DNA from: a virus
Taxonomy: Duplodnaviria; Heunggongvirae; Uroviricota; Caudoviricetes
DNA length: 19,782 nt
Reading direction: 5' to 3' (one strand)
Virus record (IMG/VR): IMGVR_UViG_2711768053_000018
Span: 1-19,782 of that record
A program made the position numbers and the translations under genes. Position 1 is the first letter of the stretch, and each line of letters opens with the position of its first letter. Below, in pieces: positions 893 to 18,230 of this stretch. The notes below the pieces were generated by a model. The model was not told where the DNA came from. It saw only the letters and a program-made list of their open reading frames with translations, and searched no databases.

Positions 893-968
<76 letters not shown>

Positions 969-7175: not shown

Positions 7176-7664
7176 CTACTCACTGGATGCCTCCTTCATA
7201 AAAAGAATCCAGTGGGTCTTGTCACCCTTTCCTGTTCGTTGACCGATAACAGGCTTTCTGTCGGTCAGTGCCAATATCTGGCGAACAGGTATTTGCGTTT
7301 CATTCCATTTAAAAATCAGAACGCCATGTGGCCACAACACACGAAAGGCTTCTTTAAATCCCTGCCGCAAATCATCACGCCAGGTATCTTTATTCAGCCG
7401 TCCATATTTCTTTCCCATCCAGGCATTATCACCAATACGCTCAAGATGCGGAGGGTCGAATACAACAACCGGAAACGATGCGTCTGCAAATGGTAATGCT
7501 CGAAAATCTGCTATCAGGTCAGGACAGATAATCAGGCGTCGTCCATCACACAATGTGTGCTCTTCTTTTCTGATATCGCTAAATATCGCCCGTTCGTCAT
7601 TCTTATCAAACCAGAACATGCGACTGCCACAGCACATGTCGAGAATGGTAGCCGACGCACTCAC
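7176..7664 (-). CDS. SAM-dependent methyltransferase, probably DNA N6-adenine (phage orphan MTase)
   Basis: 162 aa. Motif I-like LDMCCGSRMFW and motif IV DPPH (VVVFDPPH), in the order typical of amino-methyltransferases. No adjacent restriction-enzyme gene. Confidence 0.7.
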   Translation of the reverse strand: MSASATILDMCCGSRMFWFDKNDERAIFSDIRKEEHTLCDGRRLIICPDLIADFRALPFADASFPVVVFDPPHLERIGDNAWMGKKYGRLNKDTWRDDLRQGFKEAFRVLWPHGVLIFKWNETQIPVRQILALTDRKPVIGQRTGKGDKTHWILFMKEASSE

Positions 7665-8083
7665 AACATCACCTCCTCAAAATTCCCCTGATAAAACGCC
7701 AGTACACGCTGCATAACTTCGCTCTTCCGGCACTCACGGCAGATTATGTTCTGACGCCTGTCGTAGCGACGTATTTCTCCGTCAGGTAATGACCAGATAA
7801 GGTCAGGATCAACCACAACCGTTTTTTTCACCTTTGCCCTTGAGAGTTTTTTGCGGGCGTTTTGCCAGTCCTTACGGGCCTGTTCAGACGGGAATAACCC
7901 GTAGCCAGAGTTGTATACATCACCACTGGCAACCAGCTCCCTGGCGAGAATGCTCATCAGATATCTTGTCGCACCTGTCTTGGCTTCCAGTTGTCGTAAC
8001 GTCTCGCGACCGCTCAGACGTACAAGTTCAACAACCTGCCCTTTAATTTTTTCCCGCTCTTCTGGTGTAAATACTTTTGCCAT
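7661..8083 (-). CDS. Hypothetical phage protein
   Basis: Start set at ATG 8083 (MAKVFTPEE...) preceded by GGAGG at 5-nt spacing; the track ORF extends to 8098. Stop overlaps the MTase start. Confidence 0.55.
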   Translation of the reverse strand: MAKVFTPEEREKIKGQVVELVRLSGRETLRQLEAKTGATRYLMSILARELVASGDVYNSGYGLFPSEQARKDWQNARKKLSRAKVKKTVVVDPDLIWSLPDGEIRRYDRRQNIICRECRKSEVMQRVLAFYQGNFEEVML

Positions 8084-8098
8084 AGGTGCCTCCGGCAA

Positions 8099-8860
8099 TC
8101 ACTTTTCCGACACAATACGACTGGAGGAATCGAAAATCTGTCGAACAATATCCCGGTGCTTGTTCAGCTCCCGCAGCGCGGCGCAGACTCGCTCCCACTT
8201 CTGGACATGATTTTTCGCCCGACGCAGTTCGCGGTTTGCCATATGCAGCGATGGTAAAACCAGGTCATCTGCTCGCGTTTCAGTGAACGATGGCAGCGGC
8301 TGCACAATGTCCGCCACAGTTTCTGTTTTAATTTCTTCCTGTATTGCAGCCTCCTGTACTGGTAAAACAACACATGCAGGCTGAGGAAAGGCTTTACCAT
8401 CATTTTCCGTTACCGATGCAGCTTTCGGCTCTGCTGGTAAATTATCGCCCGGTATGCAGTAACGAAATTTACCGTTCTGGTTTACGCGAATCAGGCGTCC
8501 TTTGCAGATTGCCATTGCCAGCGTTGAAGCCACTTTGCGGGATGTTGTACCAAACAGCGTAGCCAGTTCATCCGCCGTTTGTGGTCCACGCTGCTCAATC
8601 GTCGCAGTTAAATCGCACTCTGAGATTTTCGCTACTGTTGCCGTGGTGGTTTCTTCCGGCAGTTCTGCCTGCATTGGCTGTTCCTGCTGAACGTTGTTAT
8701 CAGCCACACGCCAGGTGTACGCGCTTTTATCAACGAAACCAGCTTTTTTCAGTTCCCATAGTTCGTTCAGCACTTCTTCACGACTGATATCAAGTCGCGC
8801 AGCAAGTTCTATGGATGTGGCTTTTCCCATTGCTTTCAGTGCGTCAAAAACAGTCTCCAT
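8099..8860 (-). CDS. Phage protein with two winged-helix-like DNA-binding segments
   Basis: 253 aa. Two similar segments ([30 protein letters not shown] and [30 protein letters not shown]). GGGAGG RBS at 8-nt spacing. Confidence 0.6.
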
Positions 8861-8893
8861 TAAAATTTCCTCCCGGTAAAATTACTTATCAAC

Positions 8894-9559
8894 TCAAACA
8901 AAACCAGCCGCTTTCCGGCGTTCATATTCCTGTTTCAGCAACTCAATTGGTGTTGGCCCCGACGGGCGTTCTGGTGCTGCCAGTTGCCGCCGTACGGGCG
9001 GAACGCTGAAGCCGTCACCAACATGCTTTGCCCATTTCGCCAGTTGCCGTTCTGCAAGTCGTTTTAACTCCCCTTCGGTCATCTGGCGCTCAATCCCCTT
9101 TGAACGCATCTCGAGGCAAATGTGATACAGCACAGGCTGAGACCACGGGTATTTATCGCTTCCGTCGTATCGCCAGGACTCGTTGCGCCAGCGTCGGTAC
9201 TCCTCCATCACAGCATCCACCGTCAGACCGAATGGATTGGCCCCGCTTTCCGAAATCAGCGCCACAAACTCAGCCAGGTCCGGAGGCCATGTTTCACCCG
9301 TCCGGCAGCGGTCCATGCACTGGCGGCAGACCTGTCGGATTTGCTGCTCAGTCATCGCACCAATCTGTGCAATCCAGAGCTTCGAAGGTGCGGCCCCGTT
9401 CTTCTGGGTCCAGCGGTTCGAATAAACCTCCCCCATGAGTTCCCACAACTTCCAGGCCGTTTCCGTCGCTGATAAATCCGTTTTCACGTTCCCACTGCTC
9501 ACGTGCTGCCCGAATTTCCTGAACTGCCCGTGATGCGGTGCCACCTGGTGCTGCTGCAT
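8894..9559 (-). CDS. Replication protein P-like (helicase-loader family)
   Basis: Colinear similarity to lambda P from memory ([46 protein letters not shown]). Start uncertain: the track start 9559 overlaps the O-like ORF by 212 nt; internal ATGs are at 9436 and 9358. Confidence 0.65.
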
Positions 9560-10472
9560 GGTTCACCCCCTTGCTGACTGGTTTAACCTGCGCCCTGACG
9601 TGATTTACGTGACGGGCGAATTTCTGCTCCCACTGAACCTGCGTGAAAACTTTCCCCTCCGCTGCCCAGTAGTCCCGGAAGGCGGCAAGTTCAGCTGGTG
9701 TAAATTCCGGCTCCGGCAGAGCCACTCCCCACAGAGCTGCCCGCCGTCGAAAATCCAGCGACGGATGCCAGCCATCAGTCATCGGAAATTTCCCGATGGG
9801 TTCGTTCAGGCCTTCCAGGTAATCAGGTTCCGCTGTCTGCAACGGCACGCCATTTGCCTCACTGGCCGGAGCACTCTCGCGCACGCGCGCGTTATGTGTG
9901 GGGTTTATATATCTGTTATCTGTTATCTGGATACCGCATGACAAAGCGTTAGCCTTATCCTTAGGCTTATCCTCAGGCAAAGGGATTGCCTTATCGAATG
10001 CCATCCCCAAAGCCTCAGAAACCCCATAGGACGCGGCTCTCAGCGATTCCCTAGCCTCCCATTTGAGAGGACAATCAGGAATTAAAGCGAATGCCTTTGC
10101 CCAGGATTTAATGACATTTATCGAGTTTGGCGGATTGTGTTTCGCAGCATTCGGGAGCCAAAAAACTCTGGCTTTGATATCTGCTTTCACCATGCCAAGA
10201 TTCATGGCTTCGCCTAAGGCTAAGTCAAAGGCTTCGATATCCCACCCCAACTCTTCAGCCATTGCTGCCCGCCCGGCTTTAAACAACCCAGGAATAATCC
10301 CGGTAAATGGACTGGTCAGCAGATAAATAAACAAACTCTGTCCACTTGGAGGCAGAGGAGATAACGCCCTAAATTTGGGATCATCCCATATCGTTATTTT
10401 TACCTTGCGATAAGGCTCATTGTTTGCCTTAGTTTTTGGCATGGGATTTGGCATATTTTTAGCCTTAACCAT
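9348..10472 (-). CDS. Replication initiator (O-like) with a DnaT-like C-terminal region
   Basis: Track ORF 9348..10526 begins with a TTG; first ATG is at 10472 (MVKAKNMP...) with GAGG at 5-nt spacing. Contains an internal iteron/AT-rich region, as in lambda O. C-terminal region resembles the DnaT-type domain from memory. Confidence 0.6.
9906..9996. repeat. Putative replication origin: iteron-like repeats plus AT-rich tract inside the O-like gene
   Basis: Three copies of G(C/G)CTTATC(C/G) at 9952-9960, 9964-9972 and 9988-9996 (12- and 24-bp spacing), then an AT-rich tract with tandem ATCTGTT repeats at 9906-9933. In the direction of O translation, iterons precede the AT-rich tract, as in lambda ori. 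Confidence 0.45.
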
Positions 10473-10551
10473 AATTGCCTCATCTGGTGTCGAACCTTCC
10501 TCCGGATATAATCTGTGATTCCCCAATCAACAGAACCAAAGGAGGTTCGAC

Positions 10552-10803
10552 ATGTCTTTTACATTTGATAAGTCTGCTCCATTCCCACAAAAATTTTGGG
10601 TGGACAGTATTACTGGAACCGAGTCAAAAATTTTTAGCACCTCAGGAATGCTCAATCGCGGAGGAGTAAAAATACTTGCCCAGGAATTCCACACACAGGA
10701 GCTAAATTACGGGGCTTATCACAAACTAGAGTTGATAATGGATGCAACCCAAATTGATGAACTGATCGTTGCCCTACAAAAGCTAAAAGAAAAGATGTCA
10801 TAA
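10552..10803 (+). CDS. Hypothetical 83-aa protein, antisense to the early-right operon
   Basis: Strong AAGGAGG RBS at 7-nt spacing. AT-rich by eye. A perfect TATAAT sits at 10507-10512 upstream. Stop codon directly abuts the stop of the convergent gene at 10804. Confidence 0.5.
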   Translation: MSFTFDKSAPFPQKFWVDSITGTESKIFSTSGMLNRGGVKILAQEFHTQELNYGAYHKLELIMDATQIDELIVALQKLKEKMS

Positions 10804-11100
10804 TCACCCCCTAAAAATTACGTGGCGCAGCGGTTGAGCTTTGCTGTAGTCGATCTCATCGCCATACTCAATATCAAGAGCTTGTCCCTGCGCCAGTTCC
10901 ATCCACCGAATGTGTTCTGCGGCTTTTTCTTTATCTTTGATATTGATGAACAACAGCGTTGACGAGGGATACCCGTTAACAAGATGGCGATGCAGAGAGA
11001 GTCGTATGGCATACCAGGCAACATTTCGGGCTATACGCTGAAGCAATGTTTCGCCTTCCAGTGTTTTAAGTCGGTATTTTTTCAGTTCATATTTTTCCAT
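10804..11100 (-). CDS. Hypothetical 98-aa protein immediately downstream of ydaT
   Basis: ATG at 11100 (MEKYELKK...) with AAGGTGA 7 nt upstream; the track ORF starts at a GTG at 11106. Confidence 0.5.
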   Translation of the reverse strand: MEKYELKKYRLKTLEGETLLQRIARNVAWYAIRLSLHRHLVNGYPSSTLLFINIKDKEKAAEHIRWMELAQGQALDIEYGDEIDYSKAQPLRHVIFRG

Positions 11101-11112
11101 CACCACATCACC

Positions 11113-17839: not shown

Positions 17840-18049
17840 TTTATGACAAAAACTTTGAGATATGACGATGTTAAACCATGTCCGTTTTGTGGTTGTCCAT
17901 CAGTAACGGTGAAAGACATTTCAGGATATTACCGGGCAAAATGCAACGGATGCGAATCCCGAACTGGCTATGGTGGAAGTGAAAAAGAAGCGCTCGAAAG
18001 ATGGAATAAACGAACTACTGAAAATATTAATGGAGGCGTTCATGTATAA
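17840..18049 (+). CDS. ralR: Restriction alleviation protein RalR (Lar)
   Basis: Start at ATG 17840 (MTKTLRYDDVKPCPFCGCPS...); Cys-rich; matches Rac RalR from memory. Confidence 0.8.
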   Translation, partial: FMTKTLRYDDVKPCPFCGCPSVTVKDISGYYRAKCNGCESRTGYGGSEKEALERWNKRTTENINGGVHV

Positions 18050-18230
18050 AATTACCGCTACAATTGAAAAGGAAGGTGGCACTCCTACTAACTGGACAAG
18101 ATATTCAAAATCTAAACTAACGAAATCAGAATGCGAAAAAATGCTCTCAGGTAAAAAAGAAGCAGGCGTTTCCAGAGAGCAGAAAGTAAAACTGATAAAT
18201 TTTAATTGCGAGAAACTTCAGTCCTCGTGA
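18042..18230 (+). CDS. ydaC: YdaC-like protein
   Basis: ATG 18042 (MYKITATIEKEGG...) overlapping the ralR 3' end, with GGAGG 6 nt upstream. Confidence 0.6.
   Translation: MYKITATIEKEGGTPTNWTRYSKSKLTKSECEKMLSGKKEAGVSREQKVKLINFNCEKLQSS

Follow-up and report, generated by a model that had tools for sequence, protein, structure and literature searches.

A candidate replication origin within the initiator gene of a Rac-like lambdoid prophage

Organization of the initiator locus

The DNA analyzed here is a stretch of 19,782 nt from the IMG/VR virus record IMGVR_UViG_2711768053_000018 (the window, meaning this whole stretch at its full length). It carries a gene for a two-domain replication initiator and, within the part of that gene encoding the interdomain linker, a repeat element that is read on the minus (coding) strand. 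We propose that this element (9876-10001) serves a Rac-like lambdoid prophage as its replication origin, a reading to which we assign a probability of roughly 0.7. The argument depends on the following features.

9348-10472, minus strand: initiator gene, 374 amino acids from the ATG at 10472, with a winged-helix N-domain, a linker predicted to be disordered and a DnaT-like C-domain
9987-10415, minus strand: N-terminal winged-helix domain, the putative origin-binding domain, without a Pfam family
9588-9788, minus strand: DnaT-like single-stranded DNA-binding domain, amino acids 247-313 (PF17948, E 2e-17), a module common to Rac-SA53 and PPompW
8894-9355, minus strand: lambda-P-like helicase loader gene, its start overlapping the initiator stop codon (PF06992, E 2.5e-16; phrog_109 'P-like helicase loader')
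10403-10463, minus strand: array A, at the gene's 5' end, the third array with a 12-bp period, GCTAAAAATATG CCAAATCCCATG CCAAAAACTAAG GCAAACAATGAG CCTTATCGCAAG
10183-10231, minus strand: array B, second 12-bp-periodic array with the same motif, within the N-domain coding region, GAAGCCTTTGAC TTAGCCTTAGGC GAAGCC...
9930-10001, minus strand: array C, six 12-bp units in register, proposed as the iterons, GCATTCGATAAG GCAATCCCTTTG CCTGAGGATAAG CCTAAGGATAAG GCTAACGCTTTG TCATGCGGTATC
9909-9929, minus strand: tandem 7-mers CAGATAA CAGATAA CAGATAT, the proposed DNA unwinding element, from Tandem Repeats Finder (TRF) and duplex stability
9876-9908, minus strand: conserved joint ATAAACCCCACACATAACGCGCGCGTGCGCGAG with a GC-rich palindrome, where the shared C-terminal module begins

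The mechanically called open reading frame (ORF) of the initiator extends to 10526, but the ATG at 10472 is preceded by a GAGG ribosome-binding site and the annotation of PP818812, a 98% identical record, uses the same start. The product belongs to PHROG 1408 'replication initiation protein'. In its predicted structure the winged-helix N-domain is folded with confidence and the repeat-bearing segment has a predicted local distance difference test (pLDDT) score of 50-59; the linker between the N- and C-domains is accordingly modeled as disordered. A sequence search with the family profile against PDB chains gave no meaningful match.

The DnaT domain was the sole Pfam match of the initiator, and no sequence match to the RepA_N Pfam family was found in it. 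Two assignments of the whole protein were tried and rejected. As DnaT it reached 96.5 bits against a cut-off of 201 for the NF002770 equivalog, with only amino acids 239-324 aligning; judged by sequence, the C-domain is a relative of the DnaT domain and not DnaT itself. As a homologue of lambda O it showed no match to PF04492 (Phage_rep_O), a family that lambda O itself matches at E 6e-36, and hhalign of the family profile against lambda O gave a probability of 0.02%.

Repeat array and tandem tract

The first-pass annotation had described three repeats at helical-phase spacing and, beyond them in the sense of translation, an AT-rich tract with tandem ATCTGTT repeats, and both parts of the description were borne out. 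On the plus strand the copies are GCCTTATCC at 9952-9960, GGCTTATCC at 9964-9972 and GCCTTATCG at 9988-9996, with spacings of 12 and 24 bp; read in order on the coding strand they are GATAAGGC, GATAAGCC and GATAAGGC, 24 and then 12 bp apart. A spacing of 12 bp is a codon multiple and corresponds to about 1.14 helical turns, so that the repeats are not in strict helical phase. The tract itself consists of 2.9 tandem copies of TATCTGT at 9910-9929 (plus strand, TRF). As the gene is on the minus strand, running leftward, translation reaches the repeats before the tract. The segment 9901-9935 has an A+T content of 66%, and the G+C content of the gene is 52%. The whole coding-strand reading is ...GCATTC GATAAGGC AATCCCTTTGCCTGAG GATAAGCC TAAG GATAAGGC TAACGCTTTGTCATGCGGTATC CAGATAA CAGATAA CAGATAT ATAAACCCCACACATAACGCGCGCGTGCGCGAG.

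The three repeats proved to be the best-matching members of the six contiguous 12-bp units of array C (10001-9930, minus strand). Each unit starts with S-C-W and ends with W-W-G, and the GCCTTATCC repeats are three of the unit junctions, GATAAG/SC, the stroke marking the boundary. Directly after the AT tract comes a hairpin-like palindrome of G and C only, CGCGCACGCGCGCG, at 9878-9891 (plus strand), which recalls the inverted repeat to the right of the AT-rich region of lambda; one allele (the L077 group) lacks GTGCGC at this palindrome. Upstream in the gene, TRF detected period 12 in array B at 10206-10236; array A encodes the disordered N-terminal tail of the initiator and may be an auxiliary or autoregulatory site.

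Chance expectations were obtained by shuffling. When the codons of the gene were shuffled, 2 of 200 versions had three 9-mer copies (at most one mismatch) inside 50 bp; none of 1000 shuffles had a 20-nt run with period 7. We also built a 12-mer position matrix from the units of 11 relatives, with the window and a close Salmonella relative left out, and scanned four consecutive units along both strands of the whole window, with 30 shuffled windows as the control. The top match was 9942-9989, with a score of 49.2 against a shuffled-window maximum of 14.1. Only array A (30.5 on the plus and 23.7 on the minus strand) and array B (22.0) otherwise exceeded that maximum, and nothing in the window outside the initiator gene did.

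Occurrence among related loci

About 130 related loci were compared. The repeats are not missing from related phages, an absence that the first-pass annotation would have counted as a refutation: 30 near-identical IMG/VR contigs carry the element, as does the deposited phage vB_Apl-pPE4, and in Citrobacter phage Chris1 and the whole protein family it is diverged but in register. The N-domain family ranges over enterics, Xanthomonadales, Burkholderiales, Acidobacteria and others, with only three deposited phage genomes having it, and the replication module occurs in 37 of 5,426 complete Escherichia coli genomes. With regard to the deposited records, PP818812.1 ('Actinobacillus phage vB_Apl-pPE4') is 91-98% identical to an E. 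coli Rac-like region over several kilobases, and the assignment to an Actinobacillus host seems doubtful.

In nearly all members the conserved AFDKAF motif is followed by 12-bp-periodic AAG[C/G]CT units and then by a tandem tract, which consists of (CAGGAR)n with n=3 to 10 in high-GC hosts and of CAGnnnn 7-mers in enterics. Of the AAGSCT spacings, 51 were of 12 bp, 17 of 24 bp and 6 of 36 bp. A reading of (CAGGAR)n as 'DnaA-trio'-like trinucleotides was considered and discarded, as the enteric 7-mers have no 3-nt period. Distant members carry other tandem arrays at the linker position: AACGGTTCGGGT about 12 times (L035 2963-3121), GTATCGAAACG about 10 times with an 11-bp period (L056 2891-3000), ATTTAAAGAATG (L048 2925-2984) and ACGCCGTTCGGT (L042 2948-2971). 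Array B is kept across the family at about 290-310 nt upstream of the tandem tract. Enteric relatives have array A, some of its units matching linker units exactly; it was not seen in the high-GC clade.

The 7-mer tract varies in length. Two of 32 IMG/VR contigs have CAGATAA three times instead of twice (L087/L143, IMGVR_UViG_2690316123_000001, and L144, IMGVR_UViG_2563366804_000001), and none has one unit fewer, from which we conclude that the tract slips. The extra unit causes a frameshift of the initiator just after the winged-helix N-domain; these alleles could represent slippage decay of prophages or an on/off switch.

Duplex stability and the possibility of regulatory sites

The least stable 31 bp of the gene start at 9903, in the tandem tract, with a nearest-neighbour free energy (dG) of -32.3 against a window mean of -41.3 (standard deviation 3.7); for low stability this segment is at the 99.3rd percentile of the window. 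In 18 of 38 relatives the gene is least stable within the tandem tract, and in most of the others the tract lies within the top few percent. Of the three arrays only C is joined to a low-stability tandem tract and a GC clamp, and the family keeps this pairing throughout.

That difference bears on the alternative that the arrays are initiator-binding sites for autoregulation or copy control, of the operator or handcuffing type, with the true origin elsewhere in the phage. Such a role would agree with the presence of the motif in three arrays, one of which (10403-10463) overlaps the translation start region, and with SPP1, where gp38 has a second, distant binding site (PMC6316719). It would leave unexplained why only array C is joined to a meltable tract and a clamp, and why the joint between gene modules described below falls exactly at the array C tract, as it does at ori-lambda. 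Flanking intergenic DNA holds no competing repeat cluster to serve as the origin instead, and the matrix scan points nowhere else in the window beyond the gene. We consider a purely regulatory role unlikely. As a rival origin, the AT-rich DNA upstream of the gene (10527-11110) was examined and set aside, having merely two-copy repeats at chance level.

Module exchange at the tandem tract

Phage Rac-SA53 shares 93% identity with 7660-9932, and PPompW prophages share 91% with 8144-9910. Both homologies end inside the 7-mer tract, at 9932 and 9910 respectively, beyond which the N-terminal halves of the initiators are unrelated to that of the window, being of DUF1376 type in Rac-SA53 and HTH_36 type in PPompW. 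Each of them has its own repeats just upstream of the joint: TGTTCAAACA inverted repeats and GATACA tandems in Rac-SA53, about six ACCCAAA-type copies in PPompW. The sequence ...AGAT(C/A)T..TAAACCCCACACAT is common to the three unrelated N-domains. On the other side, the helicase loader gene is inherited along with the C-terminal half of the initiator, and across the family the type of this half co-varies with the downstream partner, which is P-like, DnaC/IstB-like, Toprim-DnaB_C or DnaB.

From these swaps and the partner co-variation we conclude that the N-domain and its repeats form one exchangeable unit and the C-domain and the loader another, the same two-unit arrangement that is known for lambda O/ori/P. 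The proposal of the first-pass annotation that the repeat sequence defines the replication specificity of the phage thus gains indirect support, in that N-domain and repeats are swapped together and every N-domain has repeats of its own.

The same data could be taken to mean that the element is chiefly a recombination joint, a shared boundary for swapping initiator halves whose conservation reflects recent exchange. Both the homology ends within the tract and the sequence shared by three unrelated N-domains fit this explanation. It would account for 9876-9908 but not for the 12-bp arrays upstream, which are specific to the N-domain and are kept, rare codons included, across phyla at 50% protein identity. 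Moreover, the lambda paradigm also predicts a joint at the origin, and the two readings are not exclusive. As the main function of the element, we regard a recombination joint as quite improbable.

Selection on the DNA itself

In 13 enteric relatives with less than 93% DNA identity, the dominant synonymous codon made up a fraction of 0.96 over 33 linker codons compared with 0.66 over 127 N-domain codons (p 7e-12, a value overstated by the common descent of the loci). As the N-domains differ by up to 50% at the protein level, unconstrained synonymous sites should be saturated. The 7-mers and the GC palindrome show the same synonymous fixation. In the linkers of 22 high-GC relatives, CCT accounts for 70% of the prolines compared with 14% in the rest of these genes (p 1e-19), GCT for 63% of the alanines compared with 14% (p 3e-24) and AAG for 97% of the lysines compared with 69%.

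The palindromic heptamer AAGSCTT occurs at 9.6 per kb in the 5' halves of the genes and at 0.13 per kb in 138 kb of flanking DNA, a 74-fold difference. In the linker it stands in codon phase 0 (75 of 77 cases, encoding K-P-S or K-A-S), and in array B it stands in phase 1 (55 of 56), where it encodes E-A-F within a folded helix (peptide EAFDxAFGEAF). Its use in two codon phases indicates a single DNA motif that encodes different peptides. In addition, some periods are not codon multiples, namely 7 bp in the enteric tandem tract and 11 bp in one distant relative. Two other sources of constraint were looked for: none of the alternative frames covered (all but one sense frame) was consistently open in 45 relatives, which gives no sign of an overlapping or antisense gene, and an Rfam search found no known RNA element in the initiator gene. 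The codon patterns thus indicate that selection keeps the linker repeats at the level of the DNA rather than of the peptide.

These analyses largely refute the view that the segment has no DNA-level function and only encodes a low-complexity flexible linker, rich in K-P and K-A or, in relatives, in Q and E, that changes length by slippage. The predicted disorder, the repetitive peptide (DKPKDKA) and the variation in unit number and (QE)n length between relatives are what such a linker would show. It would not, however, be expected to fix nearly all synonymous sites, to retain the rare codons CCT and GCT in high-GC hosts or to place the same heptamer in another phase within a folded helix, and the 7- and 11-bp periods give no peptide repeats at all; as far as the sequence comparisons go, this view has become very improbable. 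A DnaA-dependent origin, in which the GATAAGG repeats would be host DnaA boxes (TTATCC on the other strand), is hardly credible, since TTATCCTCA at 9967-9975, one position off TTATCCACA, is the lone such site in the region, there is no cluster of TTATNCACA, the window has 17 one-mismatch boxes against 18.6 expected by chance and high-GC relatives keep the array without any TTATCC.

Comparison with known origins

In lambda the location of the origin inside the initiator gene O is established (PMC7466680). The first-pass annotation had likened the present layout to that of ori-lambda inside O, and the comparison holds for the arrangement and not for the gene. As in gene O of lambda and the Stx phages, the proposed origin is in mid-gene, in the linker-coding part; repeats, an AT-rich strand-asymmetric tract and an inverted repeat follow one another in the same order (PMC7466680; lambda sequence); a P-family helicase loader gene is immediately downstream; and N-half with repeats and C-half with loader are exchangeable units in both. 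On the other hand, the initiator has no detectable O homology, and in place of the four to six 18-bp dyad iterons of lambda, whose starts are 20-24 bp apart, there is a 12-bp period with a 7-9-bp core. Further differences are a meltable tract in the form of a 7-mer (or 6-mer) microsatellite, a DnaT-like C-terminal domain and two additional motif arrays in the gene.

Initiator genes that contain their own origin are also known outside the lambdoid phages. In SPP1, oriL lies in gene 38 and consists of direct repeats together with an unwinding element rich in A+T, and the loader gene comes after it (PMC6316719). The logic of the initiator/loader module (replisome organizer gp38, loader gp39, helicase gp40) is the same as here, but the proteins and repeats are unrelated, and SPP1 has its second origin elsewhere whereas the extra arrays described here are in the same gene. 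The ori of pSK41 is within the rep gene, and the Rep linker encoded by it is dispensable (PMC5703833). In this type of RepA_N plasmid initiator the Rep boxes are central in rep; it differs from the present case in being from a Gram-positive plasmid with DnaG primase as the partner instead of a phage with a P-like loader, and in the sequence and period of the repeats.

The C-terminal half has a counterpart in the ydaU/ydaV region of the Rac prophage (oriJ replicon), which has the same DnaT-like module and downstream genes, at the 93% identity noted for Rac-SA53; YdaU, however, has a DUF1376 N-domain with different repeats. DopC, of the DopC/DopE pair, likewise joins an O-like N-terminus to a DnaT-like C-terminus and is encoded beside a P-like protein; the authors report having detected no iteron-like sequences in dopC (PMC5509034). 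In the literature on oriJ, YdaU, DUF1376 and DnaT-type initiators with iterons we found no description of the present origin. The general class, an origin inside a two-domain initiator gene, is already well known. What is new is the uncharacterised winged-helix family without a Pfam entry, the short 12-bp-periodic sites, which occupy up to three arrays and stand in two reading phases, and the microsatellite-like meltable tract.

Proposed working of the putative origin

According to the origin reading, the N-terminal winged-helix domain would bind the 12-bp-periodic array through the quasi-palindromic core WWAAG-S-CTWW, the three GGATAAGSC units being the best copies of the binding site. Several initiator protomers would assemble side by side along the array, and their assembly would strain and open the adjacent low-stability 7-mer tract (CAGATAA two to three times), with the GC-rich palindrome bounding the opened tract on its far side. 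The DnaT-like C-terminal domain could then hold the opened strand, recruit the lambda-P-like loader carrying the host DnaB, or do both. Arrays A and B, upstream in the gene, would probably be extra sites for a larger nucleoprotein complex or for autoregulation.

The foundation of this reading is what the preceding sections document: the anatomy and register of the repeats, the selection on the DNA, a duplex of low stability, a winged-helix fold, a linker predicted to be disordered and modules inherited together. The roles given to them, that is, the identity of the repeat-binding protein, the site of melting and the start of replication at 9876-10001, are argued by analogy with the established cases of lambda, SPP1 gp38/oriL and pSK41 Rep.

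Several points weigh against the origin reading. For the N-domain family as such, we infer origin activity and initiator binding from those same analogous systems. At 7-9 bp the conserved core is short, units in enterics are degenerate, and the three-copy cluster is by itself only modestly improbable (2/200 shuffles). The AT tract, too, covers a short distance of about 23-30 bp; in high-GC relatives, where its G+C content is 50%, it is low only by comparison with the DNA around it, and in 20 of the 38 relatives the absolute minimum of stability within the gene falls elsewhere. Since related loci share descent, the p-values of the codon analyses are overstated. Finally, with arrays A and B the motif occurs at more than one place, so that a regulatory role instead of an origin is conceivable.

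Neighbouring genes and other features of the window

Upstream of the initiator gene there are YdaT/cII-like and YdaS/Cro-like genes and a divergent repressor-like gene, the initiator gene being placed in a cro/cII-like early operon. The YdaT-like and initiator genes are separated by 580 bp (10527-11112) that contain only unsupported ORFs (10552-10803, plus strand, and 10804-11106, minus strand), the latter without a Pfam or PHROG match. This segment has no counterpart in Rac-SA53 or PPompW, and vB_Apl-pPE4 shares only its first 30 bp or so (to 10559). Elsewhere in the window, the RalA antitoxin small RNA at 18048-18226 (minus strand, 218 bits) marks a Rac-type prophage, and two tRNA genes are located near the other end, at 818-889 and 896-968 (both minus strand).

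Significance for the phage family

We suggest tentatively, at somewhat less than even odds, that this locus is the type example of a widespread and undescribed family of phage initiators, found from enterics to Burkholderiales, Xanthomonadales and Acidobacteria. The origin of such a family would consist of 11-12-bp-periodic quasi-palindromic sites (core AAG-S-CTT) in the initiator's own gene, written in two reading phases (E-A-F in a helix, K-P-S in the linker), with a microsatellite-like unwinding element beside the linker array, and the sites would dictate part of the protein sequence. The 7-bp tract of the enteric members would at the same time be a slippage-prone frameshift point that could switch a prophage between a full-length and an N-domain-only initiator.

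If the origin reading is true, it would identify both the origin and what determines specificity in a replication module that occurs in Rac-like prophages of E. coli and Salmonella and in many prophages of other Proteobacteria and of Acidobacteria, none of which has a described origin. The locus would offer a testable case of a coding sequence constrained by putative binding sites for its own product, and of lambdoid phages recombining initiator halves exactly at the proposed origin. The signature of a 12-mer array followed by a tandem tract could be used to annotate origins in the family, and to predict groups of replication incompatibility or specificity among prophages.

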